A DNA stretch of 32,000 nt from Candidatus Saccharimonadota bacterium (lineage in GTDB: Archaea > Nanohalarchaeota > Nanosalinia > Nanosalinales > Nanosalinaceae): contig CP012986.1 in NCBI GenBank assembly GCA_001761425.1, positions 930,001-962,000 of the forward strand, given 5' to 3'. The first letter of the stretch is position 1; each line of letters begins with the position of its first letter. Below, piece after piece: positions 1-32,000 of this stretch. The notes beneath the pieces were generated by a model. That model made no database searches and was not told the DNA's origin. It saw only the letters and a program-made list of their open reading frames with translations. Position numbers and translations under genes: made by a program.

Positions 1-127
1 CGGTTTCCACCATCCTGTCGCCATAATTGATTACTTCATACTCTTCGCCAGATTTTTCTGTCGCTTTTTCGAGTACTGTTGATTTTCCGACTCCTGAAAG
101 GCCTACAACTATATTTACGCTACTCAT
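1..127 (-). CDS. adkA: archaeal-type adenylate kinase, first 42 codons only (gene continues past the left edge)
   Basis: Hand translation of the minus strand from the ATG at 127 gives MSSVNIVVGLSGVGKSTVLEKATEKSGEEYEVINYGDRMVET. It has a P-loop GxxGxGKST and an INYGD block like archaeal AdkA. The start overlaps the cca stop (ATGAGTAG), which suggests cca and adkA are co-transcribed. Confidence 0.6.
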   Translation of the reverse strand, partial: MSSVNIVVGLSGVGKSTVLEKATEKSGEEYEVINYGDRMVET

Positions 128-1481
128 TTTCCTTCACTTTCAGCTTCTCCGCCAAGTATTTTAACCATTCCTCGTCGTCAGGAACAGCCTCCGTGAACCG
201 GAACTCGACTATCTTCTTCGCCACATGATCCGGTATACCCTTCTTCTCCAGTTCCTCGACTTCTCCTGAAAGAAAATCGTTCAGAAAGGCCTTCGCTTCC
301 GTGTAGTCTCTGTCGATTTTAGCCCAGATCCTTTCATCTTCTATGAAAGTGTTCTCGTACTTCTCTGTAAACTGTTCGAGGTGTTCGACGCCGTGAAAGA
401 CTTTCGGACCTTTCTGCTTCCGGACTTCGGGAAGGGAGGCCTCAAGTTCGAGGAGGATGCGGGTTTTCTCCTCTCCGACGTGGAAACCGGTCTCGAAAAT
501 CCTGAACTGTTTTTCTTCCAGTACGTTTTCCAGGCGGCGAAGAGTTTTCCTCATCTGTGGATAGATCACGTCCTCTACCGCTTCAGGCCTCTCAAACTCC
601 ATAACCAGGAAGTCCGCTCTCCTGTCGATCTCCTGTTTTACCTCGAACTGGCTGATCTCTCTTTCCTCTTCCTGGAAGAATTTCATGCTAGGATCTCTGT
701 TGAACTGCCAGAACCTGTGGATAACCCTGGAATAGTTCTGCGCACTCATCACCGAGGCGACATTCCTCTCCGGATCCACAGGATCGATGACCACAAAGCT
801 TTCATCCGAAAACTTCTCTTTCAAGGCCTGAGGAAGGCCTCCCCCATGATGATTTTCAGGGTCTATTACCTCGTTTTCCCTCCAGTTCTCCGCTTCTTCC
901 GCCAGTTCCTTGAAGCCTCCGAAGTGTGCGATCAGTATCTCACACAGGTAACCGGAGAAGGCCTGTACTTTGAGTGATGAGCCGTAGAGGCCTCCCGAGT
1001 CGAGGAACTTCTTCAGTATGACTGCGTCTTTTTTCTGTCTCTGGTTAAGGTTTTCTGAGGCCCATTTCGAGTGGTGTGGTGTTCTGTCGACCGCTGATTT
1101 GATGTTTTCGGGGCTTACTTTGTAGCAGGGGACGATTTCGACTTCGTGACCGTTTATTTGGCCTTTTGTGTATGGATGCTCTGCGTATTCGACCTGGTAT
1201 TCGCCGTCAAAGTTTTCAAAGGCTTTTTTTCCGACTGTGAGGCCTTGCTGTTCTATTGTTTTTCTTTCAGTATCTCTGGGAAAGAGTACGAAAAGATCAA
1301 TGTCTTTGTCGCCTGACATGCATGTACCTCGGCCTGTGCTTCCTGCGAAATGTGTTTCAAGGCCGTACTCTCCTTCTATAAACGCTGAGATTTTCTCGTA
1401 TACGCTTCTGGCATCGCGGAGTTCTTTCTGCTCCGGGTAAACCTGTTCTATGATTTTTTCACGGACTCTTTCCCATTCCAT
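120..1481 (-). CDS. cca: CCA-adding enzyme (class I archaeal tRNA nucleotidyltransferase)
   Basis: 453-aa ORF with the Pol-beta NTase signature GSTGRGTCMSGDKDIDLFVLF near the N-terminus. Length and architecture are typical of archaeal Cca. Confidence 0.9.
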   Translation of the reverse strand: MEWERVREKIIEQVYPEQKELRDARSVYEKISAFIEGEYGLETHFAGSTGRGTCMSGDKDIDLFVLFPRDTERKTIEQQGLTVGKKAFENFDGEYQVEYAEHPYTKGQINGHEVEIVPCYKVSPENIKSAVDRTPHHSKWASENLNQRQKKDAVILKKFLDSGGLYGSSLKVQAFSGYLCEILIAHFGGFKELAEEAENWRENEVIDPENHHGGGLPQALKEKFSDESFVVIDPVDPERNVASVMSAQNYSRVIHRFWQFNRDPSMKFFQEEEREISQFEVKQEIDRRADFLVMEFERPEAVEDVIYPQMRKTLRRLENVLEEKQFRIFETGFHVGEEKTRILLELEASLPEVRKQKGPKVFHGVEHLEQFTEKYENTFIEDERIWAKIDRDYTEAKAFLNDFLSGEVEELEKKGIPDHVAKKIVEFRFTEAVPDDEEWLKYLAEKLKVKENE

Positions 1482-1504
1482 AAAACTGTTTTTGTCCGGA
1501 AGCC

Positions 1505-1514
1505 GATATTAATC
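1505..1514 (-). promoter_or_regulatory. TATA-like box for cca (probably a leaderless mRNA)
   Basis: GATTAATATC on the minus strand is centred about 28 nt upstream of the cca ATG (1481). There is no Shine-Dalgarno sequence in between. Confidence 0.4.
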
Positions 1515-1592
1515 TTGGGAAAAAACGCTGAAATCTGAAGAATAATGAGCGAAAGAGTAGTGAGGCCTTTATAGAGGCCTCGGAGGAGTTTT

Positions 1593-1976
1593 TTAGTTGT
1601 TGAGGCCTTTAACCTGTTTGCGGTCGCCGATGACCCAGAACTCTATTTCTTCTCCTTCTCCTGCTGAGAGGTCGTCTGGGAGTTCCATTTCTTCGGTCTC
1701 GTATGTGTCCATGTCCATGACCTGTGCAATGTTTCCGTCTCTGGAGACTACCTGGCCGACTTTTTTGTCGACGTCAGGGCTCATCATCATTGCGTCGCCT
1801 GGCTTGGTGATATGTCTGTCCTTGTCATCGAATACTCCTCTCGCCTTGATCTTGTGCTTGGCACTTCCATGCTTTCCTGGAGAGGATTTGCTTGTTGATC
1901 GGACGATGCATGGCTCTCCGTCGATCATGATGTATGTTCCGTCGCTGACGTTGGATGCTTCCATTTGTGTCGGCAT
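1593..1976 (-). CDS. eif5a: translation initiation factor 5A
   Basis: 127 aa, with the hypusination loop SSPGKHGSAKHKIKARG. Size is typical of aIF5A. Confidence 0.9.
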   Translation of the reverse strand: MPTQMEASNVSDGTYIMIDGEPCIVRSTSKSSPGKHGSAKHKIKARGVFDDKDRHITKPGDAMMMSPDVDKKVGQVVSRDGNIAQVMDMDTYETEEMELPDDLSAGEGEEIEFWVIGDRKQVKGLNN

Positions 1977-2018
1977 TGTTTAGTTCACCTTAGGTTGGAG
2001 TAGAGAAAAAAGAATCCT

Positions 2019-2216: not shown

Positions 2217-2278
2217 TGTTCAATCACAAAAAGTTAATTGCGGACAACATTTTTTAATATAAACCGTTTTCTACAGGT

Positions 2279-4969: not shown

Positions 4970-7159
4970 ATGTCATACGACGAAAATATATTCCAAGATG
5001 AAGAGTCCTATGAGAACTTTATCTTGGAATCCTTCCGTCAATTTATTCAAAAAACTCATGGTGGAAAAGATGGCTTTATTCGAGAAGCATCAGAGAACGG
5101 TGTAAACTACAATAAATCTTCAAGATATAGTGAGATCATAGAGAAAATAAGAAATAATGAAGATAGCAAGAAAGAAAAAATTCTGAAAGGGAAAACTGGC
5201 ATTCTAGAAGCGGTTGAATACTATAGCTTATATAAGTTTCAGGTAAGAGGGATAAGAAAAATAGACGAAAATGTAGTTAAAGAGTTTAATTCTTCTCTTA
5301 AAGATACAAAAAATAGCAAAGACAGTAAAAAATCTGCCATAGAACTATGTGAGTCATTAACTAGTAAGAATTTTTCGGAAAGATGGCGCAAATATTGGCT
5401 AAAACAAAATAGGAAACTGCCTCCAGTAATGCTTTTTCAAAATACAGTAATAGGTCCTTTGGGACCGATTCTCAAAAGAGATAAGGAACCTAAAAGATAT
5501 TCGGACTCCAGCCACATCTCACATGGCTATGAAATGGAATATATGACCACCTTAGACCTTTTGATGCTACCTCAAAATTACAGAAAGGCAAGACATAGCA
5601 ATTATCCCTTCAACTTACAAAAGACAGAATTTGTCAAACTTCTTTCCTCCATTTTGTCCTCATGCCGGAATAATATTAACTCATTTGAGGGAACTTATCA
5701 AAAATACATAGAGGACAAGGAAGACCAACTAACTTCTAAAATAGGTCAAATAAAGTCTAGATTAAGTAAAGAAGGTGCAAAATGCTCTGATAAACTGAGT
5801 AATGGCGAAATACCTCTTATCTATGCAGAGATTTCGCAGCTATCAGAAATTTTTCTAGAGAAAGACGAAGTTATTAAGGAGCTTAACGGATTAATTGGAG
5901 ATAATACACTAGTTGTGAGTGAAAGCACTACCCTTAACTTAGGATGGCGAGGCCCCGAATTTAAGGTAACTGAGGAAGGGATAATCGAAAGCAGTAGAGG
6001 TAGCTCGGCATTTAATCTTGCTCAAGATGTAAGCGACCTCAGCGATAAAGAGGCAGCCAGCCACTTAATAGAAATATCTGACAAGGGACTGATAAAATAT
6101 GTAGACGAGTTATCTAAGAAAGAATTTGAAACTTATAGAGAGTTGTTAGAGAAAAACAATCTAAACTACGAAGAAAGGCACCAAATGATAGCAGAGAAAA
6201 CTCAAAAGAGGCTTCTTGAGTCATATGGGATAAATTTACCGATAAGAGACTCAATGAGATTTAGAAACGATTTAGTATTGTTCTTCAAAAATTTAGAAGA
6301 ATTTGAAGAAAACTACAATAACTATGGAAGAAACTTAACTTCTAAAATCACTAACTTATTACGAGACACGAGAGTGAACTCCGAAAGATTCCTAAAAGAA
6401 CTTTTTACTTTAGAAACACTGCTAATAGAGCATATGAGAAAAAGAGAAGATCCATTTCAACAAAAAAATCCGTTATTAACACCTACCTTTGAAGAGAGAT
6501 TAGGCTTTAGCTACACGCCAGGTCGCGTGGGTAATTCCGAAAGAGGCGTAAAATTTTGCAAGAAATGCGTAAGACATCACCTGAACGAACTGAGACCCTA
6601 TATAACGGAAGAACTGGAATTGAAAATAGAGAAGTTTCTAGACACTTCTGAAGCGAGTTTTAGTTTAGGAGACTGGAGAAGCCTAGCGAAGGCCAATGAG
6701 GAACTTATTGAGGATCAAAATCTTAAATTACATGAATCACTTCCAGAAAGATTCTCAAATAGTTTGGAGGAAACAAAAGAAGAGTTTGAAAGATTCATGG
6801 AAAAAAACCATAGCTTGCTAAACACTGCAAGCCATGAAGGAGCTAAGAGAAAGTTTAGAAACAACAGTTCTTTGAGAGATGAATCTATCGGCTTATTAAA
6901 GGGAACAAAACAGGAGTTTAAGAAATTCTTCAGCTTCCTTCCGGGACCATATAGAATAGTTACAGAAAAAGAAGAAATAGATTCTGGATTGACTTCTTAC
7001 GGCGTAGAAAAAATAGGTCTGGACGGCGAGATAATTGAAGATTCAATCTATGGAGTTAACATAAGGGATAAGAAAAAAAGCTACTTCATACTGCCTAGAG
7101 GAAGAAAACATCTAGTTGAACCCATAATAGTTAGAGACGTCGCTGACGAGATTTTCTGA
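4970..7159 (+). CDS. hypothetical 729-aa protein, K/N/S-rich and near charge-neutral, compositionally foreign
   Basis: A long uninterrupted ORF starts 5 nt after the tfb stop. I recognised no catalytic motif. GC is much lower than in the flanks and it contains no AGGCCT copies. Confidence 0.6.
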   Translation: MSYDENIFQDEESYENFILESFRQFIQKTHGGKDGFIREASENGVNYNKSSRYSEIIEKIRNNEDSKKEKILKGKTGILEAVEYYSLYKFQVRGIRKIDENVVKEFNSSLKDTKNSKDSKKSAIELCESLTSKNFSERWRKYWLKQNRKLPPVMLFQNTVIGPLGPILKRDKEPKRYSDSSHISHGYEMEYMTTLDLLMLPQNYRKARHSNYPFNLQKTEFVKLLSSILSSCRNNINSFEGTYQKYIEDKEDQLTSKIGQIKSRLSKEGAKCSDKLSNGEIPLIYAEISQLSEIFLEKDEVIKELNGLIGDNTLVVSESTTLNLGWRGPEFKVTEEGIIESSRGSSAFNLAQDVSDLSDKEAASHLIEISDKGLIKYVDELSKKEFETYRELLEKNNLNYEERHQMIAEKTQKRLLESYGINLPIRDSMRFRNDLVLFFKNLEEFEENYNNYGRNLTSKITNLLRDTRVNSERFLKELFTLETLLIEHMRKREDPFQQKNPLLTPTFEERLGFSYTPGRVGNSERGVKFCKKCVRHHLNELRPYITEELELKIEKFLDTSEASFSLGDWRSLAKANEELIEDQNLKLHESLPERFSNSLEETKEEFERFMEKNHSLLNTASHEGAKRKFRNNSSLRDESIGLLKGTKQEFKKFFSFLPGPYRIVTEKEEIDSGLTSYGVEKIGLDGEIIEDSIYGVNIRDKKKSYFILPRGRKHLVEPIIVRDVADEIF

Positions 7160-7608: not shown

Positions 7609-8706
7609 CTAGGCCTTGAGATCCCTGATCACATCTTTAAGATCCTGGATCGGTGCATCCGTTTTAACGCCGGTAGGACTGAAATGCGTTCTCTCCACAG
7701 GATAACCTTTCTCCCGCAGAGCCTGTATAAATTCCTCCCTCCTCGGAGAGGAAGTGCCTATATTAGAGGCCAGCGCGTGTATATCGTAGTAAGGAGTTAT
7801 AATCTCCGCTTCCGCATCCAGTTTTTCCAGGAATTCGTAGGCCTCCCATTCCTCCGGCATATCCTCCAGCATATCAGAGGTAAACCTCTGATCGACGAAC
7901 TTTCCAGTCCATAGAGGCCCTGCTTCCTGCGTCTCTTCCCCGCATTCCGGGCAGTTTTTTACACGCTCGAACTTTCTCCACAGACAGTTCCCACAGTAGG
8001 AAAGGTATCCTACGTTTTCCAAGGCCTTGTTCGTCCTTTTCTTCGATTCTGTGACCCTGCCCATGACCCTGGTATAATGCCTTTCATGGAAACAGACTTT
8101 CGGATCAAAGCATTTATCGAAACGAGCGAAGTTCCGGAAAACCTCTTTCAGATAAATTCTGAGGCCTATCTCATGCATGAAATCATTTTTTATCGGCTTT
8201 GAGCCATACCTGCGTTCACAGACTGTCGGATAAGAGCCTGCTGGCGCAGCATTATCAGTGGATGTAAGGCCTACAAAACTTGTATGGTTAGCAGCTCTTG
8301 CTGTAGAATCAAGGAATTTTGTGAAAGATCCAAACGGATCAACATCTATAAAATGGAAGTAATTCCCGAATTCTGACAGAAAGACATTCGCATCCTCCTC
8401 GTGAACTGTTGCCTCAATACCGTTTTCATCAAGGCCTTTCCCAATTGCCTCTACCGCTTCTGGATTCACATCGTTTAAATGAAGATCTGTCGCGTATTCT
8501 CCGTATCTGAATCCTCTGATCCCTGAGGCTGCCAGTGCGTCTGCCACACGGAACTCTTCTTCAAGGCCTGCTCTTTCCCTGAACACTTTTACAGCTATCT
8601 GGGAGATATCACGGTTGTTAAGCATCTTTTCATTGAAAAATACTTCCGAGTCCTTGTCCGGCTCTTCCTCCTCGGGCGCGAAAACTTCCAGGCCTCTTTC
8701 TTCCAT
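7609..8706 (-). CDS. trm1: tRNA (guanine26-N2)-dimethyltransferase
   Basis: It has the FFNEKMLNNRDIS block, a SAM-methyltransferase core and the Cys cluster CGNCLW...CPECG typical of archaeal Trm1. The ATG at 8706 is chosen because a TATA-like element lies about 29 nt upstream. The ORF-track start at 8820 adds 38 unconserved-looking residues. Confidence 0.85.
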   Translation of the reverse strand: MEERGLEVFAPEEEEPDKDSEVFFNEKMLNNRDISQIAVKVFRERAGLEEEFRVADALAASGIRGFRYGEYATDLHLNDVNPEAVEAIGKGLDENGIEATVHEEDANVFLSEFGNYFHFIDVDPFGSFTKFLDSTARAANHTSFVGLTSTDNAAPAGSYPTVCERRYGSKPIKNDFMHEIGLRIYLKEVFRNFARFDKCFDPKVCFHERHYTRVMGRVTESKKRTNKALENVGYLSYCGNCLWRKFERVKNCPECGEETQEAGPLWTGKFVDQRFTSDMLEDMPEEWEAYEFLEKLDAEAEIITPYYDIHALASNIGTSSPRREEFIQALREKGYPVERTHFSPTGVKTDAPIQDLKDVIRDLKA

Positions 8707-8731
8707 GAACAAACTGGTTCCAGTCAAACTT

Positions 8732-8739
8732 CTTATAAC
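8732..8739 (-). promoter_or_regulatory. TATA-like box for trm1
   Basis: GTTATAAG on the minus strand is centred about 29 nt upstream of the ATG at 8706. Confidence 0.35.
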
Positions 8740-8800
8740 AGGAAGCCCGTAAGACTCAAAACTTTTATAAAGAAGTCCGGGTGAAGGCCTCTGCATTTGG

Positions 8801-8808
8801 TTTATAAA
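8801..8808 (+). promoter_or_regulatory. candidate TATA box of the atp operon
   Basis: TTTATAAA lies about 40 nt upstream of the atpH TTG start. GGTGA at 8833-8837 could act as a Shine-Dalgarno sequence. Confidence 0.35.
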
Positions 8809-8844
8809 CCTTACAACCACGAGTGCTAATACGGTGAATTTATC

Positions 8845-9162
8845 TTGGCTGACGTAGTTCAGGAAGTGAAGAAAGCAGAAACGGACGCTGACGAAATAAT
8901 CGAGGAAGCGAGGGAAAACAAAGAGGAAATGATAGACGAGGCTAGACAGAAAGCCGATGAGATAGTTGAAGACGCCAAGGAAAGTTCCCAGGAGCGGAAA
9001 GAAACCAGGCTCCAGGAGTTCAGAAAAGAACTCGAGGACAGAAAAAACGAAATCATTGAGGAAGGAGAGAACAAGGCAAATGACGTCAGAGAATCTGCCT
9101 CAGACAACATATCAGACGCTGAAAAACTCTTGATGGATAAATTCTCTGAAGAATACCTGTAG
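8845..9162 (+). CDS. atpH: A-type ATP synthase subunit H
   Basis: 105 aa, E/K-rich helical protein (AETDADEIIEEARENKEEMIDEARQKADEIV) in the first position of the canonical HIKECFABD order. The start codon is TTG. Confidence 0.75.
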   Translation: MADVVQEVKKAETDADEIIEEARENKEEMIDEARQKADEIVEDAKESSQERKETRLQEFRKELEDRKNEIIEEGENKANDVRESASDNISDAEKLLMDKFSEEYL

Positions 9163-9169
9163 AGACTAG

Positions 9170-11005
9170 GTGATAAAAATAAAACCTGCAGAGATGACCA
9201 AAATATCGATTACTGGCCCAAAATCCCAGCTAGAGACAACAATTGACACACTCCACAACCTAGGCCTTCTACACATCGAAGACTACGAGGGAGAGCTTGA
9301 AACCGGAGAACCAGGAGACGAGGCAGAAGAACTTTCCGAACTACTTGTTGACATCAGATCAGTTATCTCCAAACTACCTGAGAAAGAGGAAAAAAGAGAA
9401 GAAGTAAAGGCCTCGGTCGAAGAAGTTCAGGGGGAGTTCGAGGATATCAGAAATGATGTCGATCGTTTAAAGTCCGGTATCGAAGGCTCGAAGAGAGAAA
9501 TCAAAGAATTCGAGGAAGAAAAAGATTTTTACAGAAGTCTCAAAGGCTCAGGCCTTGATATACAGGAAGTAAGAGAGACGGAAAGTCTTGATGTTGCGGT
9601 TGCTGATTTTAAAGTTGATGAATTTAAAGAGGAAGTTAATACGGATCGCTATGATATCTTCAGAGGAAGTAAGGCCTCTGCTGTAGTTTTCGAGAAAAAT
9701 GTTTCCGCGGAGGTAAACTCTGCTCTGCAGGAGTCTGGAAGGAATATTTACAGTATCCCCGGTGATCTGCGGGAAGGTGTTCCCTCTGAGGCCTTGAGTA
9801 GTATTGACTCTGATATCGGTGATGCCGAGGCCGAGAAGGAAAAGTTTGAAAACGAGCTGAAGGTTCTTGCTGATGAATGGGCCGGGAAACTCCGTTTTGT
9901 CGAAGGTTTCCTGACTGAGAGGATTGAGAAGGCTGAGGCCCCTCTTAACTTTGCTACGACCGAAAGGGCTTTCATCGCCGAGGGATGGGTTCCTTCGGAC
10001 ATGTACGATGTTGTTGAGGAAGAGGTCGCTGAGTCAGCCGAGGGCAAAGTTCATATTCAGAAGGAGGAAGGCGAGGAGGCCCCTGTCAAGCACGATAATC
10101 CCGGAGCTGTCCAGTCATTCGAGTCTCTGACCGATCTGATGGCAGTTCCTAAATATAATGAGGTGGATCCTTCCGCCATTATCTTCCTGACCTTCCCGCT
10201 GTTCTTCGGTTTCATGATCGGAGACTTCGGATACGGTTTAACCACTTTCCTTGTGTTCTACGCAGGCTACAGAATGTTCGAAGGAGCAAGAGAGATATTC
10301 AAGTCTCTGATGTGGGCCTCAGTAGCGACCATGGCATTCGGACTCGCCTTTGGAGACGCCTTTGGCTTTGTAATATTCGGAAGCCATTCCATCTTGGCGG
10401 AGCAGTTCGGACTGGACATATTCGCCCAGATACCGTTACTATTCCACAGAGCGGAGCATCTTACCCAGGTATTCACAGTATCAGCACTGATAGGTCTTGT
10501 ACACGTTAACGCAGGCTATCTAGTAGGTGCTTACAACGAGTACAGCAGGCACGGTGCCAAAGAGGCCTTCCTTGAGAAAGGTTCATGGCTTCTGCTTGAG
10601 GCAGGAATCGCACTCTGGTACTTCATCGGTATGATGGCAGGCCTTCCAGTAGTACTGATCTCAATTATCGCTCTCTACCTGGGAGAAGGAGTCGAGGGTA
10701 TCGTAGAGATCCCTTCCCTCCTGTCGAATGTCCTGTCCTATTTCAGGATCTTCGGAGTCTCCGTCGCCGCAGTAGCACTGGCAGCAGTTGTGAACGGTAT
10801 CGCAGGCACAGCGTTTGCGACCGGAGGCCTGCTTGGAATAGCCTTGGGCACGGCGATCCTGGTAATCGGACATGTATTCAACACGTTCATCAAAATCATG
10901 GAAGGCTTCCTTCAGGGAATCCGACTTCACTACGTGGAGATGTTCGGAAAGTTCTATGAGGGAGGCGGTAAAAAATACGCTCCTTTCGGAGCACAGGAAC
11001 CATAA
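9170..11005 (+). CDS. atpI: A-type ATP synthase subunit I (stator a-subunit)
   Basis: 611 aa, with a soluble N-terminal half and a polytopic C-terminal half containing the LSYFRIFGVSVAA block (conserved Arg). The start codon is GTG. Confidence 0.9.
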   Translation: MIKIKPAEMTKISITGPKSQLETTIDTLHNLGLLHIEDYEGELETGEPGDEAEELSELLVDIRSVISKLPEKEEKREEVKASVEEVQGEFEDIRNDVDRLKSGIEGSKREIKEFEEEKDFYRSLKGSGLDIQEVRETESLDVAVADFKVDEFKEEVNTDRYDIFRGSKASAVVFEKNVSAEVNSALQESGRNIYSIPGDLREGVPSEALSSIDSDIGDAEAEKEKFENELKVLADEWAGKLRFVEGFLTERIEKAEAPLNFATTERAFIAEGWVPSDMYDVVEEEVAESAEGKVHIQKEEGEEAPVKHDNPGAVQSFESLTDLMAVPKYNEVDPSAIIFLTFPLFFGFMIGDFGYGLTTFLVFYAGYRMFEGAREIFKSLMWASVATMAFGLAFGDAFGFVIFGSHSILAEQFGLDIFAQIPLLFHRAEHLTQVFTVSALIGLVHVNAGYLVGAYNEYSRHGAKEAFLEKGSWLLLEAGIALWYFIGMMAGLPVVLISIIALYLGEGVEGIVEIPSLLSNVLSYFRIFGVSVAAVALAAVVNGIAGTAFATGGLLGIALGTAILVIGHVFNTFIKIMEGFLQGIRLHYVEMFGKFYEGGGKKYAPFGAQEP

Positions 11006-11019
11006 GGTTCCAGTTAGCA

Positions 11020-11041
11020 GAAAATCCCCTTAAGGATTTTC
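11020..11041 (+). promoter_or_regulatory. 8-bp stem hairpin in the atpI-atpK spacer
   Basis: GAAAATCC-ccttaa-GGATTTTC. A GAGGTGA Shine-Dalgarno sequence (11055-11061) and the atpK ATG at 11072 follow it. Confidence 0.4.
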
Positions 11042-11071
11042 AAAAATTATGTTTGAGGTGAAAATCAACTA

Positions 11072-11311
11072 ATGGCAACAGGAGCAGAAGCAGCAGGAAT
11101 CGGAGCCTATCCTGCAATCGGTGCTGCAGTAGCTATCGCAGTTACTGCACTTGCTACAGCATGGGCTCAGGCAAAAATCGGAGCAGCTGGCGTTGGAGCA
11201 CTTGCAGAAGACGACAGCCTCTTCGGTAACGTCCTGATCCTCACAGTTATCCCGGAGACAATGGTTATCTTCGGACTTGTAGTAGCACTGGTTGTAACAG
11301 GCTTCATCTAA
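11072..11311 (+). CDS. atpK: A-type ATP synthase proteolipid subunit K (c)
   Basis: 79 aa forming one hairpin of two TM helices, G/A-rich, with the ion-binding Glu in VIPETMVIFG. Confidence 0.9.
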   Translation: MATGAEAAGIGAYPAIGAAVAIAVTALATAWAQAKIGAAGVGALAEDDSLFGNVLILTVIPETMVIFGLVVALVVTGFI

Positions 11312-11319
11312 AAACCATC

Positions 11320-11340
11320 GAAGGGCCACCAAGGCCCTTC
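11320..11340 (+). terminator. GC-rich hairpin plus T-rich tract after atpK (possible intra-operon attenuator)
   Basis: GAAGGGCC-accaa-GGCCCTTC begins 9 nt after the atpK stop and is followed by CCTTACCATTTATTT. Confidence 0.4.
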
Positions 11341-11390
11341 CCTTACCATTTATTTAACACAGAACAAAGAAAACGAGGAAAAAAGATACT

Positions 11391-11945
11391 ATGGGACTTG
11401 AAGAAGTTAAATCCGACATCTTGAAAGAAGCACAGCAGAAATCAGACGAAATCATCGAAGAAGCAGAAGAGGAAAAAGACAAGATCCTCGAAGAAGCAGA
11501 AACTGAAGCGGAAGAAATCAGGGCTGAGACGGAAAAAGAGATCAAGAGAGAGAAAGAGGCCCTGGAGAAGCAGGAGCTTTCTAACGCCCGTATGAAGGCA
11601 AAACAGGAAAAGCTGTCCGCCAAACAGAAAGAACTTGACAGAGCCTTCAACGAGTTCAGAAGCAAACTTGAAGACCTGGACAGTGAGGAAAGGAAGGCCT
11701 TTGTTGAAAACGTTATCCAGGAAACCAGCTTTGAAGTCTCGAAGGTTCAGGGCAGTGAAGAGTTCAAAGAAGCTCTGGATCAGGGGAAAACTGATTTCGA
11801 GGAGACTGAAAGGCCTGGAGTTGTCCTGATCTCCGAAGATGGTTCTATGAGGCGTGATTTCAGTTTTGAACGTATCCTGGAAAATTTCAGGTCCGAGTAC
11901 AGGAAGGATGTAGCGGAGACTCTGTTTCCGGAGGGCGAAGAATGA
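11391..11945 (+). CDS. atpE: A-type ATP synthase subunit E
   Basis: 184 aa with a long charged N-terminal helix and a globular C-terminus, in the expected operon position. It overlaps atpC by ATGA. Confidence 0.85.
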   Translation: MGLEEVKSDILKEAQQKSDEIIEEAEEEKDKILEEAETEAEEIRAETEKEIKREKEALEKQELSNARMKAKQEKLSAKQKELDRAFNEFRSKLEDLDSEERKAFVENVIQETSFEVSKVQGSEEFKEALDQGKTDFEETERPGVVLISEDGSMRRDFSFERILENFRSEYRKDVAETLFPEGEE

Positions 11946-12940
11946 GAGATTATCCCTACATGACCGCTAGAGTATCGGCGAAAAAGAAGAAGCTGCTTGA
12001 CCAGGGAGATTACGAGAACCTGCTGAAGATGCAGCCGAACGAGATAGCCCGCAGACTGGGCGAAGGAGCTTACCAGGACGATATAGATGAGCTTGGATCC
12101 AAGTACGAGGGCGCAAGACTTGTAGAACTTGCTCTAACGAGAAATCTTTCCAGGACACTTTCAGATCTTGTTGATATGTCCCCGGAGACACTTCAGAGAA
12201 TTATAACTGTATATTTAAGACGCTACGATATTCTCAGCCTGAAAAGACTCTTGAGATGGAAAAAATCAGGAGAAAAAGGAGATATCCATGATCTACTGAC
12301 TCCTGTAGGAAGCTACACGTACGGAGACCTGAAAGAGCTTTCAGAAAAAACTACAGAAGAGATAATAAACGACATAGAATTCACGGACTCGGAGATCGAT
12401 TACTCAGAGTACCTGGAAGGCAAAAAAGAGATTTCTGGACTGGAGACAGCTCTGGACCAGGCCTACTTCGATGAACTAGGCCTTCTAGCAGACAGCACCC
12501 GGAACAGCGATCTCAAGGAATTCATCCAGACTGAAATGGAGCATCAGAACATCAAGATTGCATTGAGATTGAAGAAATACGGTATCAGCAGTGAAGAAGT
12601 CAGCAAAAGGATGCTCAAGATCGACAACGGCAAGGTCGTGGAAAAGATCGTGGAAGCCCGTGATTTCGAGGAAGGTATAGAGAGAGTGAAGGATTCAGGC
12701 CTTTTGCCTGAACGGGCTTCTGATGATCTCGAGGATATCGAGCATGAGATGCAGGTTAAAAGGCTTTCTGAGGCCTTATCTACTTTCCACAGGGAGCCTC
12801 TGGGCATCACTCCGATCATCGGTTATGTTATCGCAAAGATTACAGAGGTCAGGAACCTGAGGATGCTGATCCGTGCGAAGGAAACCGGTATTCAGAACAA
12901 TGATACGATCAGGCGCAACCTGGTCATGGAGCACAGGTGA
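11942..12940 (+). CDS. atpC: A-type ATP synthase subunit C
   Basis: 332 aa. The N-terminus YPYMTARVSAKKKKLL...Y..LL is typical of AtpC (V-type d homologue). Confidence 0.85.
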   Translation: MRDYPYMTARVSAKKKKLLDQGDYENLLKMQPNEIARRLGEGAYQDDIDELGSKYEGARLVELALTRNLSRTLSDLVDMSPETLQRIITVYLRRYDILSLKRLLRWKKSGEKGDIHDLLTPVGSYTYGDLKELSEKTTEEIINDIEFTDSEIDYSEYLEGKKEISGLETALDQAYFDELGLLADSTRNSDLKEFIQTEMEHQNIKIALRLKKYGISSEEVSKRMLKIDNGKVVEKIVEARDFEEGIERVKDSGLLPERASDDLEDIEHEMQVKRLSEALSTFHREPLGITPIIGYVIAKITEVRNLRMLIRAKETGIQNNDTIRRNLVMEHR

Positions 12941-13257
12941 TTAGAATGGAAAAACAGCGCAAGAAAGAAATTGCAGCGATCGGCAGCGAGGAGTTCACTC
13001 TAGGCTTCGAGCTTGCTGGTGTAAAGAAAGTTTTCAACCCCGAGAACTACACGGAAAAGATCCAGGAACTGACCGAAAGAGAAGATCTAGGCATAGTGAT
13101 CGTTGAGGAATCAGACCTAGAAAAGATCCCGGCCAGGATCAGAAGAGATGTAGAGGAATCAGTAGAACCAGTAGTTGTCGCACTGAGCGAAGAAGCAGAA
13201 AGCGAAAGACTTCAGGACAAAATCAAGAGAGCTATTGGAGCAGACATCACACAGTAG
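12937..13257 (+). CDS. atpF: A-type ATP synthase subunit F
   Basis: About 103-106 aa, with the IAAIGSEEFTLGFELAGV block. It starts at a GTG at 12937 (GTGA overlap with atpC) or at the ATG at 12946. Confidence 0.85.
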   Translation: MIRMEKQRKKEIAAIGSEEFTLGFELAGVKKVFNPENYTEKIQELTEREDLGIVIVEESDLEKIPARIRRDVEESVEPVVVALSEEAESERLQDKIKRAIGADITQ

Positions 13258-13272
13258 AGGATCAGAATTTCA

Positions 13273-13377
13273 ATGAACACACAAGCACAGATTTCAGAAA
13301 ACAGATACTACAAGGTGAATCAACAAAATGAAAATTCAAACAACTTTCATAGAGAAGACCAGAGAGGTGGTCTCTAA
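13273..13377 (+). other. candidate small ORF A (34 codons) in the atpF-atpA spacer
   Basis: The ATG is preceded by GAGGA (13257-13261). Translation is MNTQAQISENRYYKVNQQNENSNNFHREDQRGGL. Its TAA stop is immediately followed by the ATG at 13378. Confidence 0.25.
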
Positions 13378-13381
13378 ATGA
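13328..13381 (+). other. candidate small ORF (17 codons, MKIQTTFIEKTREVVSK), alternative frame
   Basis: AAGGTGA at 13312-13318 lies upstream of the ATG. The stop overlaps the ATG at 13378 as ATGA. It shares the start context AAAATGAAAATT with the small ORF at 15177. Confidence 0.25.
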
Positions 13382-13437
13382 GTCAACAGGATCTTGAAAG
13401 GAAAGACAAATCCGAAGATTACGGAGGTGGTCTTTGA
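13378..13437 (+). other. candidate small ORF B (19 codons, [19 protein letters not shown])
   Basis: It is preceded by GAGGTGGTCT (13364-13373). Its TGA overlaps the atpA ATG as TGATG. Confidence 0.3.
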
Positions 13438-15164
13438 TGGGCGAAATCCACAAAGTCACAGGACCGGTTGTAGTAGCGACCGGGATGAACCCTCAGATGT
13501 ACGACGTCGTATCTGTAGGAGAAGAAGGCCTGATGGGCGAGGTCATCCAGATCGAAGGAGACCACGCATACATACAGGTATACGAAGACACGACAGGAGT
13601 AAAACCGGGAGAACCAGTAGAAAACACAGAAGAACCGCTCTCAGTGGAACTTGGGCCAGGCCTACTTGGTTCGATCTACGACGGACTTCAGAGGCCTCTT
13701 CCACAGCTCCAGGACCAGACTGGAGACTTCATCGCAAGAGGAGAGTCCGCAGCAGGAATTGACCTTGATCAAGAGTTCGACTTCAGGCCTTCCGTTGAGG
13801 AAGGAGATACTGTCAAGCAGGGAGATATTATCGGACGCGTAGAGGTAGATTACGGAACCCACAAAGTACTGGTACCTCCTGGGACAGAAGGAAAGGTAGC
13901 ACAGGTCAGTTCCGGAGAACACACGGTAACAGAGACAGTCGTCGCACTTGAAAACGGCGAAGAAATCCAGATGAGACAGGAATGGCCTATCAGGCAGGAA
14001 AGACCTGTCGAAGACGACAAAAGGCCTGAAGTACCGCTGATCACAGGTCAGAGAGTGCTTGACGGCATGTTCCCGATCGCAAAAGGAGGAACAGCAGCGA
14101 TTCCAGGGCCTTTCGGTTCAGGGAAGACAGTTACACAGCAATCTTTGGCCAAGTTCTCCGACGCAGACATTATTGTCTACATCGGATGCGGAGAACGTGG
14201 AAACGAGATGACAGAGGTACTTGAAGAGTTCCCGGAACTTGAGGATCCGCAGACAGGCGACAAGATAATCAACAGAACAGTACTGATTGCGAACACTTCG
14301 AACATGCCTGTAGCAGCGAGAGAGGCCTCGATCTATACTGGAGTAACTATCGCAGAGTATTTCAGAGACATGGGTCTAGACGTTGCGCTGATGGCAGATT
14401 CTACAAGCCGTTGGGCAGAGGCCATGCGTGAGGTATCAGCAAGACTCGAAGAGATGCCCGGTGAGAGAGGATACCCGGCATACCTTGCTTCCAGGCTCGC
14501 TGAGTTCTATGAGAGAGCAGGAAGAGTCGAGCCTCTTGCAGATGAGGATCCTGGTTCTGTCTCAATTATCGGAGCAGTTTCTCCACCAGGAGGAGATTTC
14601 TCGGAGCCTGTAACCCAGAACACGCTCAGAGTTGTGAAAAACTTCTGGGCACTTGACTCCGATCTTGCGGAGAAGAGGCACTTCCCTGCGATCAACTGGG
14701 AGGATAGTTATTCAGGTTACAGCGAGATGCTTTCCGATTACTTCGAGGAAGAGGTTCATGAGGACTGGACACAGAAGATCCAGCGTGCTCGTGACCTGCT
14801 TCAGAAGGATGGAGATCTTCAGGAAACAGTCCAGCTCGTTGGTAAGGACGCATTACCTGACAGGGAAAGACTTACACTTGAGATCGCAACACTGATCAAG
14901 GAGTTCTTCCTTCAACAGAATGCGTTCCACTCAGTCGACGAGTATTCCTCTCCTGAGAAATCCTATCACGTACTTGATCTGATCCTGAAATGGGGTGACA
15001 AGGCCTACAAAGCTCTGGAAGATGGAGCACTTGTAGAGGATATAGTCGGCCTGGACTCCAAGAACAGGATCGCAGAGCTCAAGTTCAACGAGGATTACAT
15101 GGAGATCAAGGAAGACGTTCAAAACCAGATGAGAGAAGAGTTCGACCAGGTTGTCGAACAGTAG
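13437..15164 (+). CDS. atpA: A-type ATP synthase catalytic subunit A
   Basis: Walker [13 protein letters not shown] is present and the overall AtpA blocks align. The ATG at 13437 has a GGAGGTGG Shine-Dalgarno sequence at 13423-13430. Length gives no sign of an intein. Confidence 0.95.
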
Positions 15165-15176
15165 AGGTAACCGAAA

Positions 15177-15230
15177 ATGAAAATTTCAGGAAATTTTCTT
15201 GGTTGCCAATCACAAGGTGATAGCCAATGA
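15177..15230 (+). other. candidate small ORF (17 codons, [17 protein letters not shown]) in the atpA-atpB spacer
   Basis: GAGGTAA at 15164-15170 lies upstream of the ATG. The stop overlaps the atpB ATG as ATGA. Confidence 0.25.
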
Positions 15231-16630: not shown

Positions 16631-16638
16631 AAACCTTC

Positions 16639-16660
16639 AAGGCCTCTCAAGGCCTTTTTT
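16639..16660 (+). terminator. hairpin built from two AGGCCT copies plus a T6 run after atpB
   Basis: AAGGCCT-ctca-AGGCCTT followed by TTTTTT (16655-16660). It begins 9 nt after the atpB stop. Confidence 0.45.
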
Positions 16661-16681
16661 CCCTCTATTCACTGATATACG

Positions 16682-17317
16682 ATGGCACAGGACGTTAAAC
16701 CTACAAGGTCTGAAGAACTTCGTTTGAAGGAGCGTATCGAGCTTGCGGAGAACGGTCATGAGATCCTTGAGAAAAAGCGTGATGGTTTGATTCACGAATT
16801 CATGGAGATCATAGACGATGCAAAGGAGGTCAACCAGGAACTTGCTGATCTTTACTCCCAGGCCCAGCTCAAGATGATGCTCGGAAAGGTCTATGACGGA
16901 GAGGATACAGTGAAAGCGAACGCTATGGCTGTTGAACAGGAGATCGAGATCTCTCTTGAAGCACAGAACATTATGGGAGTCAAGGTCCCGGAGATCGAAT
17001 CAGAGAACAAGATACAGAGAAAGATACTCGACAGAGAATACGGAACTACATCCACATCCTCCAGGATAGACTCCACAGCAGACAAATACGAGGAACTTCT
17101 GGAACAGATCGTTGACGCAGCCGAGACCCAGACAAAAATCCTCAAACTCCTGGATGAGATAGAAAAAACCAAGAGAAGAGTAAACGCATTAGAACACAAG
17201 ACAATCCCGGAAATGAAAGACGCACAGAGCCAGGTCTCACAGGTCCTCCAGGAACGGGCAAGAGAAGAAACCTTCCGGATGAAAAAAATCAAAGAAATGC
17301 AGGAAGAAAACGAATAA
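16682..17317 (+). CDS. atpD: A-type ATP synthase subunit D
   Basis: 211 aa. The N-terminus KPTRSEELRLKERIELAENGHEILEKKRDGLIHEF is typical of AtpD. Confidence 0.9.
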   Translation: MAQDVKPTRSEELRLKERIELAENGHEILEKKRDGLIHEFMEIIDDAKEVNQELADLYSQAQLKMMLGKVYDGEDTVKANAMAVEQEIEISLEAQNIMGVKVPEIESENKIQRKILDREYGTTSTSSRIDSTADKYEELLEQIVDAAETQTKILKLLDEIEKTKRRVNALEHKTIPEMKDAQSQVSQVLQERAREETFRMKKIKEMQEENE

Positions 17318-19147: not shown

Positions 19148-19218
19148 GGAGAGATCACACAAACCGTTGAAACTCTCAAACTTATAAAACTTTAAAGATC
19201 TTTTGTCACTGAAAAGTC

Positions 19219-30159: not shown

Positions 30160-30501
30160 ATGGTAGAAGTCCCAGAAGATACTGAAGTAGAAGACCTTCC
30201 GTTCACACACGCAAGGATCAAAAGAATGATCAGGGAGAAAGCAGACGAAGGCCAGTACGTACGCTCAAACGTTTACTACGGCCTCAACCTGCTTCTCGGC
30301 GAAATCGCAGAAGAAATCATCGACAACATGATGGAAACAGACGCAGCATACGTCGAAAAACACCACCTCGACCACGCAGCAAGGAAATATGAAAAAGTCG
30401 AAAACATCATCCAGGAAAAAGAACGCGTCTCCAGAAAACTCGAGGCACTCTCCGCAGACGTCCAAAAACTATCCCGCGAAGTACAGCAAAGCGACCACTG
30501 A
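30160..30501 (+). CDS. divergent histone-fold-like protein with a C-terminal coiled coil
   Basis: LPFTHARIKRMIRE...VRSNVYYGLNLLLGEIAEEIIDNMM...YVEKHHLDHA aligns by eye with the histone at 2019-2216 and with the LPxARIKxIM motif of NF-YC/H2A-type folds. It lacks the R-x-T DNA-contact pair. It has a heptad-like tail of about 40 aa. Confidence 0.45.
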   Translation: MVEVPEDTEVEDLPFTHARIKRMIREKADEGQYVRSNVYYGLNLLLGEIAEEIIDNMMETDAAYVEKHHLDHAARKYEKVENIIQEKERVSRKLEALSADVQKLSREVQQSDH

Positions 30502-30532
30502 AGGCCTCAAAAACAAGGCCTCACATATTTTT
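30502..30532 (+). terminator. two AGGCCT copies (potential 6-bp stem) plus a T5 run after the histone-fold-like gene
   Basis: AGGCCT at 30502 and 30516 are separated by CAAAAACA. TTTTT lies at 30528-30532. Confidence 0.35.
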
Positions 30533-30550
30533 CCCCAGTTCTTCACACCA

Positions 30551-30561
30551 TTTGATTTATT
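30551..30561 (+). promoter_or_regulatory. TATA-like box for the HTH regulator (leaderless)
   Basis: TTTGATTTATT is centred about 28 nt upstream of the ATG at 30584. Confidence 0.4.
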
Positions 30562-30583
30562 CTTTGACCCCAACTTTCACATT

Positions 30584-30928
30584 ATGAGGTTCGAAAGCGA
30601 AGTAGTAAGCGAGGAACTTCTCCCAGCGATCAGATCCATCATGGCCTCACAGCTCAAACAGGAATACGGCCTCAAACAGAAAGAAATCGCAGACAAAATA
30701 GACATCACACAGCCCGCAGTAAGCCAGTACCTCTCAGGAAACCGCGCCAACCAGAAAATAGTCGACAAGATGAAAGACGACCCACAGATCGAAATCATAA
30801 TCAGAGACGCAGTCAGCAACGCAGCCAAAGACCAAGAATTCAGCCAGGAAATAAGCCAGGCCATACAAACCGTCAGAGACAAAGGCCTCCTCAAAGAAAA
30901 ATTCTCAGACACCGAAAAAATCATCTGA
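30584..30928 (+). CDS. small HTH (XRE/COG2522-like) transcriptional regulator
   Basis: GLKQKEIADKIDITQPAVSQYLSGNRAN is a helix-turn-helix motif. The internal ATG at 30584 is chosen. The upstream part of the 179-aa ORF overlaps the previous gene and its terminator. Confidence 0.65.
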   Translation: MRFESEVVSEELLPAIRSIMASQLKQEYGLKQKEIADKIDITQPAVSQYLSGNRANQKIVDKMKDDPQIEIIIRDAVSNAAKDQEFSQEISQAIQTVRDKGLLKEKFSDTEKII

Positions 30929-30935
30929 TTTTTTT
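30929..30935 (+). terminator. T7 run directly after the regulator stop
   Basis: TGA followed by TTTTTTT. A 7-bp hairpin TCTCTGG-tttccat-CCAGAGA follows at 30952-30972. Oligo-T runs are also present on the minus strand for the convergent gene. Confidence 0.4.
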
Positions 30936-31011
30936 CCAGGTTTTTAGAAAATCTCTGGTTTCCATCCAGAGAAAATCATTTACTGACATAAAAAGAAGGA
31001 AAAAATATGTT

Positions 31012-32000
31012 TTACGTGAATCCCTGGAAGGCATAACTCTCCGCTTCCTCAAGTTCTTCCTCTTCTTCCGCGACAAGTTCGCTGAACTTTTCGACCGCAT
31101 TCTCCAGAGGCTCTGCTGAAAGCTCGTACTGCCCTGCGGTTTCCTGAACTTTCTGGACAGGTTCCTCAAGAACTTCAAACTCTTCCTGAAGAGCCTCAAA
31201 GTCAAGGTAGTATTCCTCGCTGAAGAACGCGACATAGGCCAGACCTCCGCCTCCAAGGCCTACGAAAAGAAGCAGGAAAAGGCCTACAGCCTGGTTCCTC
31301 TGCGCTGTCTCATGCTGTTTTTTGACTTCTTCATAGGTATTTGACGCAGCCTGGAACCGGTTCTCAACGTTTTGCAGATGACTTTTGACCCTGTAAAGAT
31401 TGCCGTTGCTTTTGGCTTTCTCTGCTGACTCCATGCTGGAGAAGAAGCCGGAGGTATTTGACTCAAGTTTCTCCTTTCTTGAATCCGAGAGGCCTTTCTC
31501 AAGGTCTGAAACATTTTTCTCCAGAGCCTCGTACTTCTTATAATATTCACTGTACTTACTGGTTATCCTGTCTTCCTGATTCTTGTTTGCCTCTACAACG
31601 AAATCCATTTCCCGGGATGTATCAGGACTTTCTGTAGAAAAAGTCAGACTGTGTTTCCCGAGGTCAGTGTCTTCAGTGTCGATTGAAAACATCAGTTCAG
31701 TGCTGTTTCCAGGCCTCAAGTCTTGAACAGTCCTTGAATCATTCAAAACCTGTGAATCAATGTTTAGCTCCATTTCACCGATGAAAAGATCGCCTGTGTT
31801 GGTCACGTTGGCATAGATTATCTTCGAGTCTCCTGCCGTGACACTGGCAGAGTCATCTACACTCAGGCTTGCAGAAGGCTCTGCATCAGGCCTGAAATCG
31901 AAACTGAATTCTTCACGGACACTTATCTTCCCGGACTTATCTCTTACCCAGACATAGACCGTGTGCTTCCCGGCTTCAAGGCCTTCAGTGCCGACCCTGA
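31012..32000 (-). CDS. surface protein with CARDB/Ig-like repeats, coiled coil, C-terminal TM anchor and acidic tail (5' end outside the window)
   Basis: The reading frame stays open from 31806 to the right edge (hand translation ...GKHTVYVWVRDKSGKISVREEFSFDFRPDAEPSASLSVDDSASVTAGDSKIIYANVTNTGDLF...). The NVTNTG...LRPGNSTELMF...GKHSLTF pattern is CARDB-like. The TM segment is AVGLFLLLFVGLGGGGLAYVAFF. Confidence 0.6.
   Translation of the reverse strand, partial: RVGTEGLEAGKHTVYVWVRDKSGKISVREEFSFDFRPDAEPSASLSVDDSASVTAGDSKIIYANVTNTGDLFIGEMELNIDSQVLNDSRTVQDLRPGNSTELMFSIDTEDTDLGKHSLTFSTESPDTSREMDFVVEANKNQEDRITSKYSEYYKKYEALEKNVSDLEKGLSDSRKEKLESNTSGFFSSMESAEKAKSNGNLYRVKSHLQNVENRFQAASNTYEEVKKQHETAQRNQAVGLFLLLFVGLGGGGLAYVAFFSEEYYLDFEALQEEFEVLEEPVQKVQETAGQYELSAEPLENAVEKFSELVAEEEEELEEAESYAFQGFT

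Follow-up and report, generated by a model that had tools for sequence, protein, structure and literature searches.

AGGCCT as a HIP-like iterated palindrome in one clade of nanohaloarchaea

Results

The hexamer AGGCCT, a perfect 6-bp palindrome that reads identically on both strands, is present in large excess in the chromosome of Nanohaloarchaea archaeon SG9 ('Ca. Nanopetramus SG9'), which originates from Atacama halite. The stretch of 32,000 bp analysed here (contig CP012986.1, positions 930,001 to 962,000; referred to as the window, with coordinates counted from its first base) contains exactly 115 copies, that is 3.6/kb or about one per 260-280 bp. The excess is certain, and the conclusion that it is a DNA-level signal and not a coding effect is very well supported. 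It is also well supported that AGGCCT is an iterated palindrome of the HIP (highly iterated palindrome) type, created and held in a single clade by a directional process at the DNA level. The comparisons given below show that this process favours the complete hexamer, acts equally in spacers and is still running.

A preceding sequence-only reading of the window had tallied about 115 copies by eye, and the exact scan also found 115. They start at positions 99, 287, 437, 585, 824, 835, 959, 988, 1240, 1563, 1575, 1603, 2282, 2340, 2426, 2502, 2598, 2782, 2791, 2871, 2971, 3214, 4484, 4646, 4793, 4928, 7422, 7611, 7839, 8022, 8162, 8267, 8432, 8564, 8690, 8785, 9262, 9408, 9550, 9672, 9789, 10563, 10639, 10825, 11695, 11811, 12459, 12478, 12697, 12771, 13526, 13658, 13692, 13785, 14022, 14323, 15001, 15685, 16241, 16640, 16650, 17325, 17447, 17554, 17843, 17887, 19227, 19298, 19409, 19695, 19917, 20118, 20300, 20688, 21338, 21499, 21622, 21664, 22435, 22627, 22912, 23024, 23643, 24205, 24404, 24675, 24964, 24983, 25213, 25555, 25605, 25665, 25923, 26601, 26845, 26981, 27551, 27658, 27756, 28129, 28628, 28931, 29162, 29243, 29342, 29576, 30502, 30516, 30883, 31256, 31280, 31490, 31711, 31888 and 31979. 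The base composition of the window (A 28.3, T 25.7, G 23.0 and C 23.0%) predicts 6.5 copies, in line with the estimate of about 6 made earlier, and dinucleotide-preserving shuffles (n=100) gave 8.0 +/- 2.3 copies with a maximum of 15, which corresponds to a 14-fold enrichment. AGGCCT ranks first among all hexamers of the window, ahead of GAAGAA with 65 copies, and is the sole strongly enriched 6-bp palindrome; the runner-up, AGATCT, has 19 copies and stays under its own expectation. Related words with the same GGCC core are infrequent. The sequence-only reading had assigned about 7-14 copies to each one-base neighbour, a range that includes AGGCCA (7) and AGGCCG (11) and is exceeded by AGGCCC (17); TGGCCA occurs 5 times, and CGGCCG and GGGCCC are absent. 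As much as 60% of all GGCC tetramers sit within AGGCCT, which rules out a general GGCC preference, and the same reading's view that no general GGCC or AGG/CCT preference is at work is borne out both by these counts and by the codon-preserving shuffles described below. A maximal-order Markov model, which had been suggested as a check, predicts 108.9 copies and could be taken in favour of a compositional artefact, but this figure is circular and uninformative because AGGCCT itself supplies 77-83% of its own 5-mers.

The sequence around the copies carries little further information. The base at position -1 is A in 50 and G in 29 of the 115 copies, and the base at +1 is T in 49 and C in 29. The 5' purine that was earlier described as nearly always present is therefore a real tendency but reaches only 69%, and the actual form of the soft preference is (A)AGGCCT(T); beyond the +/-1 positions the flanks are near background composition. 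Since no flank is conserved beyond +/-1, AGGCCT does not belong to any longer repeat. An origin from a longer repeat, a REP/MITE-like element or copies of a mobile element was rejected on this ground and because 87% of the copies are located in genes. Regular spacing was likewise rejected, since the distances between copies within the 32 kb are near-exponential (coefficient of variation 1.17). The window together with both flanks contains 192 copies in 49.4 kb (3.9/kb), and extrapolation from these 49.4 kb suggests that the SG9 chromosome (~1.1 Mb) carries roughly 4,000 or more. By exact protein matches the window belongs to a contig of 1,125,078 bp (JGI 3300010222).

A coding explanation has some initial appeal, as the codons AGG, GGC, GCC and CCT are in moderate use and the dipeptide Gly-Leu occurs commonly. 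To the 28 confidently called genes, which cover 89% of the window and include those of the CCA-adding enzyme, aIF5A, TFB, Trm1, the A-type ATPase operon and MoxR/DUF58, belong 100 of the 115 copies; the other 15 are outside these genes, where the word is at least as dense. The copies in coding sequences are distributed over all three codon phases, with 17 as AGG|CCT (Arg-Pro), 31 as nAG|GCC|Tnn and 52 as nnA|GGC|CTn (x-Gly-Leu). A within-gene shuffle of synonymous codons, which preserves the protein and the codon usage of each gene, produced only 14.2 +/- 3.4 copies (maximum 25) against the 100 observed, a 7-fold difference, and a shuffle of codon order produced 8.1 +/- 2.8. A peptide or codon explanation was rejected on the basis of both shuffles and of the three-phase distribution. 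The atpA gene (13434..15164, + strand) illustrates this in a single reading frame, as its seven copies use all three phases: two are nnA|GGC|CTn (13526 and 14022), three are AGG|CCT (including 13692 and 13785) and two are nAG|GCC|Tnn (including 14323). The four atpA examples on which the sequence-only reading had based its frame argument were all correctly placed, and so were the eight spacer positions it had named (1563, 1575, 16640, 16650, 17325, 27551, 30502 and 30516). Its central proposal, a frame-independent signal of the DNA itself, survives the dinucleotide and codon null models and agrees with the 17/31/52 phase distribution and with the presence of copies in spacers, where enrichment (~17x) is similar to that in coding DNA (~12x).

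Within the native genes the word is close to saturation. Peptide contexts that could encode AGGCCT by synonymous choice number 129, and 100 of them (~78%) do so: 17 of 19 Arg-Pro, 52 of 63 x-Gly-Leu and 31 of 47 [EKQ]-Ala-[T-start codon] contexts. The native genes free of AGGCCT, namely atpD, atpH, atpF and the gene of a 423-aa nucleotidyltransferase, contain no compatible context at all. The last of these encodes a conserved nucleotidyltransferase-domain protein (17891-19162, - strand), for which the lack of any compatible context is unusual given its length; through the nucleotidyltransferase domain it also has a weak PADLOC candidate-defence match (PDC-S09, oligonucleotide cyclase).

A natural control is provided by an orphan open reading frame (ORF) of 729 aa (4970..7159, + strand), flanked by the TFB gene and a small winged helix-turn-helix gene. 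Its GC content is 35% against a window average of 46%, it contains no AGGCCT, and none of its seven compatible contexts is realised, compared with 100 of 129 in the native genes (P ~3e-5). The ORF is a strain-specific insertion: it is absent from the close strain L209, from the Dead Sea strain M3_22 and from Nanohalobium constans, and a different ORF takes its place in the relative L083. Searches against Pfam, PHROG and PADLOC gave no match to this ORF, and among 5.8 billion proteins it has one distant homologue only (25% identity) and no viral relatives. DNA that arrived recently is thus free of the word, as would be expected if resident DNA acquires AGGCCT over time.

The distribution of the trait was determined by counting the motif at the syntenic locus of each nanohaloarchaeal lineage, with the relatives ordered by the identity of their atpI to that of SG9. 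The density is high in L209 (atpI identity 99%; 3.9/kb), L083 (82%; 4.2/kb), L079 (74%; 3.4/kb) and L087 (64%; 3.3/kb), and intermediate in M3_22 (L084, CP046106; 61%; 1.7/kb). It is low in L211 (61%; 0.41/kb), L212 (60%; 0.67/kb), Nanosalina sp. L088 (59%; 0.37/kb), N. constans LC1Nh (L085; 57%; 0.09/kb) and Nanohalococcus occultus (L086; 54%; 0.41/kb). A neighbour-joining tree built without bootstrap from concatenated ATPase proteins places the five rich lineages (SG9, L209, L083, L079 and L087) in one clade and M3_22 outside it. Among the matches listed, the other 79 atpA loci, archaeal as well as bacterial, all stay at or below 0.65/kb. The enrichment is thus specific to one clade of Nanohaloarchaeota that contains SG9. 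The sequence-only reading had asked whether the density is conserved in relatives and missing from foreign DNA; it is kept in the close relatives, low in the same genes of other nanohaloarchaeal genera and nil in the inserted foreign gene. In a search of viral contigs with a triple-motif pattern, random or tandem-repeat contigs predominated among the matches listed. Six independent assemblies, originating from different studies and sites, show the trait, which excludes an assembly artefact. An artefact in any of its forms (codon usage, dipeptides, GGCC preference, mobile-element copies, assembly or contamination) is refuted, as the synonymous shuffle yields 14.2 against 100 copies, all phases and spacers are used, NGGCCN words are rare, flanks are unconserved, and the orthologues in other genera have 0-3 copies.

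The locus of M3_22 (21.8 kb) shows intermediate enrichment of a different kind, with AGGCC and AAGGCC, not the palindrome, as its top enriched words. AGGCC occurs 150 times on both strands together against ~42 expected from the outgroups, and AGGCCA, AGGCCC and AGGCCG are all raised along with their complements. Around GGCC, a 5' A and a 3' T show a positive association in lineages of the rich clade (odds ratios 2.4-4.4) and are independent in M3_22 (0.8). This pattern may reflect a specificity that is related yet distinct or less strong, or else an earlier stage. At the locus of N. constans LC1Nh (21.8 kb) GGCC is scarce, with 21 copies against ~34 expected, and AGGCCT occurs twice; in the same genes this is the opposite tendency to that of the SG9 clade.

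Comparison of orthologous genes indicates how the sites are gained. The conserved block formed by Trm1 and the A-type ATPase operon (atpH-I-K-E-C-F-A-B-D; 7609..17317, Pfam assignments) contains 31 copies in SG9 and was compared across 8-11 nanohaloarchaeal lineages; the site-by-site comparison covered eight orthologous genes (Trm1 and seven ATPase subunits, 8.6 kb). In these genes four rich-clade lineages have 26-32 copies and fill 68-86% of their compatible contexts, M3_22 has 17 copies and fills 63%, and three outgroups have 0-3 copies and fill 0-12%. The number of compatible contexts itself differs, with 35-41 (38.5) in the rich clade against 18-27 (23) in the outgroups. By this ratio AGGCCT ranks second among 3,450 hexamers with enough data (z 3.7), which indicates that the protein sequences themselves have shifted. 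The ortholog table shows replacements of Lys-Pro by Arg-Pro at more than one position of atpA, atpB and Trm1; at atpA alignment site 351, for example, Arg-Pro of SG9 corresponds to Lys/Asn/Gln-Pro in the outgroups. The Met-Gly-Leu found in the atpA of all seven other lineages is Gln-Gly-Leu in L087, and in atpF the change of Gln-Glu-Leu to Lys-Ala-Leu (E->A) creates a compatible context. The DNA-level pressure overrides protein conservation even in core ATPase subunits. Synonymous gains are found as well, such as GGA->GGC at a conserved Pro-Gly-Leu and AGA->AGG at a conserved Arg-Pro of atpA.

The gains involve transitions and transversions (A->C, C->A at position 1, G->T; GGA->GGC), change all six motif positions including 1 and 6, and often require two changes per site. 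Sites unique to one lineage are frequent (10 in L087, 7 in L079 and 6 in M3_22), and AGGCCT has repeatedly been gained in the same alignment column, as at three sites common only to SG9 and M3_22. These singletons and homoplasies indicate that the process continues and runs separately in each lineage. When the entire locus is aligned with that of L079 (77% nucleotide identity), 34 of the 56 sites are found at the same place, compared with 22.8% of all hexamers; much of this conservation can be explained by independent saturation of identical contexts.

On the shortest time scale, SG9 and L209 (98.4% identity over 21.6 kb) share 82 copies, with three found only in L209 and four only in SG9. One of the three L209-only sites falls in sequence that does not align to SG9, and the remaining six differences, polarised with L083 and L079, comprise ~3 gains and ~3 losses. 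A rough neutral expectation is ~0.5 gains, given ~100 one-mismatch neighbours, and ~8 losses. These small counts lean towards a balance of gains and losses that holds the density of AGGCCT far above its neutral level.

Some copies stand in close pairs. Seven such pairs, 9-14 bp apart, are present in the window, three of them in spacers after stop codons. These three dyads form hairpins of 7-8 bp, and two are followed by T-runs. The dyad AAGGCCT-CTC-AAGGCCTT (16640..16655, + strand) directly follows the atpB stop codon and is itself followed by TTTTT; its hairpin has a free energy of -9.8 kcal/mol (z -3.0). The dyad at 1563..1580 (- strand), with copies 12 bp apart, lies in the spacer between the genes of aIF5A and the CCA-adding enzyme, downstream of aIF5A (-12.9 kcal/mol, z -5.5), and is found in L209 too. 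The third (30502..30521, + strand; copies 14 bp apart) begins directly after the TGA of the ORF 30160-30501 and has a T-run 9 nt downstream (-9.8 kcal/mol, z -2.4). In the atpB-atpD spacer a dyad is present in all five rich-clade lineages, with differing loops, and in none of four outgroups. Dyads in relatives were located at 17439-17457 (L083), 10173-10188 (L079) and 10016-10032 (L087), and the hairpins of the window and the relatives together have stems of 7-10 bp and energies of -9.8 to -13.2 kcal/mol. Some AGGCCT copies may thus have been co-opted as 3'-end structures, as putative terminators or RNA-stabilising elements.

Several other palindromes deviate from expectation. In the window GAGCTC (1 against 16 expected), CTTAAG (1 against 11), TCTAGA (6 against 18) and AGCGCT (1 against 5) are strongly avoided; strong avoidance of such palindromes extends to the loci of L083, L079, M3_22, N. 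constans and N. occultus, with CTTAAG absent from those of M3_22 and N. constans and GAGCTC from that of N. occultus. Such avoidance is typical of restriction pressure, and restriction-modification (R-M) systems do shape nanohaloarchaeal genomes. AGTACT reaches 2.5-3.9x its expectation in the window (16 copies), M3_22 (18) and L079 (12), and GATATC occurs 26 times, 4.7x its dinucleotide expectation, in the metagenome-assembled genome of Nanosalina sp. (L088, 21.8 kb). Both excesses may be minor lineage-specific iterated palindromes. As a separate observation on gene arrangement, an ORF with a PIN domain (2279-2737, + strand) and an AI-2E transporter ORF (2673-3740, - strand) converge in the window with a called overlap of 65 bp (2673-2737), and the arrangement is called likewise in L083, M3_22, N. 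constans and L209.

Discussion

The spectrum of words around AGGCCT describes the specificity of the underlying process. Relative to syntenic DNA of the outgroups AGGCCT is enriched 12.6-fold, and its 18 one-base neighbours range from 0.7x to 2x except for GGGCCT/AGGCCC at 5.2x. Deviants at the outer positions reach 5.2x (GGGCCT/AGGCCC), 2.0x (TGGCCT/AGGCCA) and 0.75x (CGGCCT/AGGCCG), and those at the inner positions 0.7-1.6x. Its palindromic symmetry suggests that a symmetric protein recognises the word in double-stranded DNA, and speaks against a signal at the RNA or peptide level. In the explanation preferred here, which draws on analogy with HIP1 and with uptake sequences, AGGCCT would be recognised by a DNA enzyme that is symmetric (dimeric) and clade-specific; the most plausible candidate is an orphan DNA methyltransferase with AGGCCT or its GGCC core as target. 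Methylated DNA bearing the motif would be favoured in exchange, recombination or recombinational repair among conspecifics, so that copies accumulate, and molecular drive of the type proposed for uptake sequences would fill every tolerable position. Single copies would not need to serve the host gene, and a few may have been co-opted as gene-end hairpin dyads. The combination of a clade-specific methyltransferase site with drive through exchange or recombination is a tentative explanation, given somewhat less than an even chance of being correct.

A methyltransferase with exactly this target exists elsewhere. In Alcanivorax an active Type II methyltransferase and restriction enzyme recognise AGGCCT, with cytosine methylation written AgGCcT (PMC12128166). 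In this StuI-type system of Alcanivorax borkumensis SK2 the identical word is cytosine-methylated on both strands, and the whole genome has 1,674 sites (PMC12128166), so that SG9 with ~3.9/kb is far denser. A REBASE survey lists for M3_22 a single Type II methyltransferase as well as one gene of the m4C (N4-methylcytosine) class, without a restriction enzyme, and for N. constans, which is not enriched, only m6A (N6-methyladenine) and m5C (5-methylcytosine) genes (PMC10609329). This link through M3_22, where the specificity is a predicted one, is no more than suggestive.

Several points weigh against an explanation by methylation and exchange. The M3_22 link comes from one genome and a predicted specificity. 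The one nanohaloarchaeal methylome available, that of N. occultus, a genus without the trait, shows GDGCHC only (PMC11001535). The 49 kb of SG9 that were read contain no gene for a DNA methyltransferase, a restriction enzyme or Vsr and none for competence; the search comprised Pfam on 33 window ORFs and precomputed Pfam calls of the flanking genes; PADLOC (six proteins) and PHROGs (five), applied to otherwise unassigned window proteins, revealed no R-M component. To our knowledge, nanohaloarchaea have no known transformation system, and neither natural transformation nor conspecific recombination is documented in them. A 6-bp word separates self from non-self poorly in comparison with uptake sequences of 9-12 bp. 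The substitutions within sites between SG9 and L209 (7 against 8.6 expected) show a deficit that is not significant, and the fraction of hexamers changed, 4.7% for AGGCCT sites against 9.1%, has the expected direction and is likewise not significant. Finally, unlimited drive might have filled unconstrained DNA further than the ~17x seen in spacers against ~12x in coding sequences.

Biased mismatch repair, either in the form of Elhai's methyl-dependent model for HIPs or as Vsr-like very-short-patch (VSP) repair, would convert near-cognate sites to AGGCCT and would require neither a function nor exchange. It would explain the frame independence, the clade specificity, the ongoing gains, the empty newly arrived DNA and the maintenance of sites, and the bias of one-base deviants towards the outer positions is the argument made by Elhai for HIP1 (PMC4390886). 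The signature of VSP repair is nevertheless absent, as the deamination products AGGTCT/AGACCT (0.91x of outgroups) and AGGCTT/AAGCCT (1.58x) are not depleted. Such repair would also limit gains to T->C (A->G) at the methylated cytosine, whereas the gains observed include transversions, multi-step changes and the outer positions. The undepleted neighbours and the transversional and outer-position gains together argue against a simple VSP origin. The sequence-only reading had listed methylation combined with VSP repair among its analogies, and in this simple form the analogy is disfavoured. The Dcm/Vsr system of Escherichia coli (CCWGG, CTAG) raises the frequency of a methyltransferase word by repair bias, but its effect is small and the T:G-derived neighbour is depleted, whereas AGGCCT is enriched 14-fold with neighbours not depleted. 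Moreover, no Vsr-like gene is present in the 49 kb of SG9 read, and an analysis of HIP1 conservation favoured selection over replenishment through biased repair (PMC5861425). An origin by biased repair is therefore considered unlikely.

The other two analogies drawn by the sequence-only reading, HIP1 of cyanobacteria and uptake sequences, fit well. HIP1 (GCGATCGC) is also a short GC-rich palindrome, enriched at least 15-fold compared with 14x for AGGCCT. Both words occur in all reading frames and in intergenic DNA, are conserved in place above background and are scarce in foreign DNA. Both are lineage-specific, with related lineages that lack the word or have a variant of it, and in both the one-base deviants concentrate at the outermost positions; the inner core of HIP1 is a methyltransferase site (PMC4390886). 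Long without an assigned function, HIP1 is reported to raise transformation and recombination when methylated (bioRxiv 10.1101/2024.09.10.611283), and a role as uptake signal has been put forward for it (bioRxiv 10.64898/2026.06.24.733823). The differences are that HIP1 has 8 bp and is spread throughout the cyanobacterial phylum, whereas AGGCCT has 6 bp and belongs to one clade of symbiotic DPANN archaea (genome ~1.1 Mb) and is of recent origin. AGGCCT is denser than HIP1 (1 per 260-280 bp), and cyanobacterial symbionts tend to lose HIP1. An identification of AGGCCT with HIP1 proper was rejected, as the word is different and the host archaeal; what they share is HIP-like behaviour.

The uptake sequences of Neisseria (DNA uptake sequence, DUS) and Pasteurellaceae (uptake signal sequence, USS) are explained by molecular drive, in which biased uptake is combined with recombination. 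Like AGGCCT, they reach about one to several copies per kb, occupy tolerant reading frames with effects on peptides, and are scarce in recent DNA. The inverted-pair hairpins that they form in terminators at gene ends may have a counterpart in the small number of AGGCCT dyads, such as those of the atpB-atpD spacer. Uptake sequences differ in being 9-12 bp long, non-palindromic and strand-specific with a known competence receptor, whereas AGGCCT is a perfect 6-bp palindrome with a weak +/-1 extension. A more far-reaching version of the explanation by methylation and exchange would make AGGCCT the first archaeal 'self' signal for uptake or recombination, in which a clade-specific methyltransferase marks ~4,000 sites per 1.1-Mb genome and the marked DNA is preferred in uptake or recombination or escapes degradation, which would drive the word to saturation. 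This version is judged improbable; if true, such a self-mark would let host-dependent cells tell DNA of their own species from scavenged host DNA.

Direct selection for a role at the chromosome level is another explanation to be weighed, with AGGCCT serving as sites for a clade-specific nucleoid or condensation protein or as a strand signal for methyl- or nick-directed mismatch repair. The GATC density in E. coli is close to 1 per 260-280 bp. Coding (~12x) and non-coding (~17x) DNA are enriched alike, as if the density of targets mattered; sites are conserved above background and gains balance losses. A function in nucleoid structure has been proposed for HIP1 (PMC5861425). The near-exponential spacing, without regularity over the 32 kb, does not fit such a role, ~4,000 sites of tiny effect would be hard to hold by selection in a symbiont with a small population, and the trait is dispensable in sister genera that possess the same genes. 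No candidate protein emerged. A chromosome-level role appears doubtful.

The excess could also be a by-product of R-M or defence. Methylated AGGCCT would mark self and block a nuclease used on imported host DNA, and its density would protect the chromosome. Type II methylation and restriction with this palindromic specificity are known (PMC12128166), the avoidance of GAGCTC, CTTAAG and TCTAGA in the same DNA means that restriction pressure is real, and nanohaloarchaea need host nucleotides and have been proposed to export a methyltransferase to the host (PMC11001535). Known R-M targets are, however, avoided or neutral in their own genomes, so that a 14-fold enrichment has the opposite sign. 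Protection by density would be an unprecedented mechanism, and the 49 kb of SG9 read contain neither a nuclease nor a methyltransferase. This by-product explanation is regarded as very improbable.

The claim of the sequence-only reading that no archaeal equivalent had been described agrees with the literature searches: the literature on nanohaloarchaea and archaea, including the SG9 genome paper, yielded no earlier mention of an AGGCCT excess or of an iterated palindrome. HIP-type palindromes, explained only in part after 30 years, are known essentially from one bacterial phylum. AGGCCT represents an independent HIP-like origin in an archaeon, with a different word and in genomes of ~1 Mb. The boundary of the trait is sharp and recent, with rich lineages, a lineage with an intermediate 5-mer and poor lineages all carrying the same syntenic genes, and this makes the causal gene directly findable. 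The contrast between rich and poor lineages would let models of selection, repair and exchange-driven accumulation be tested in natural populations. The density of AGGCCT also offers a simple marker for assigning contigs, plasmids and viruses to the clade in hypersaline metagenomes, and the word bears on how DPANN symbionts handle their own DNA and that of their hosts.

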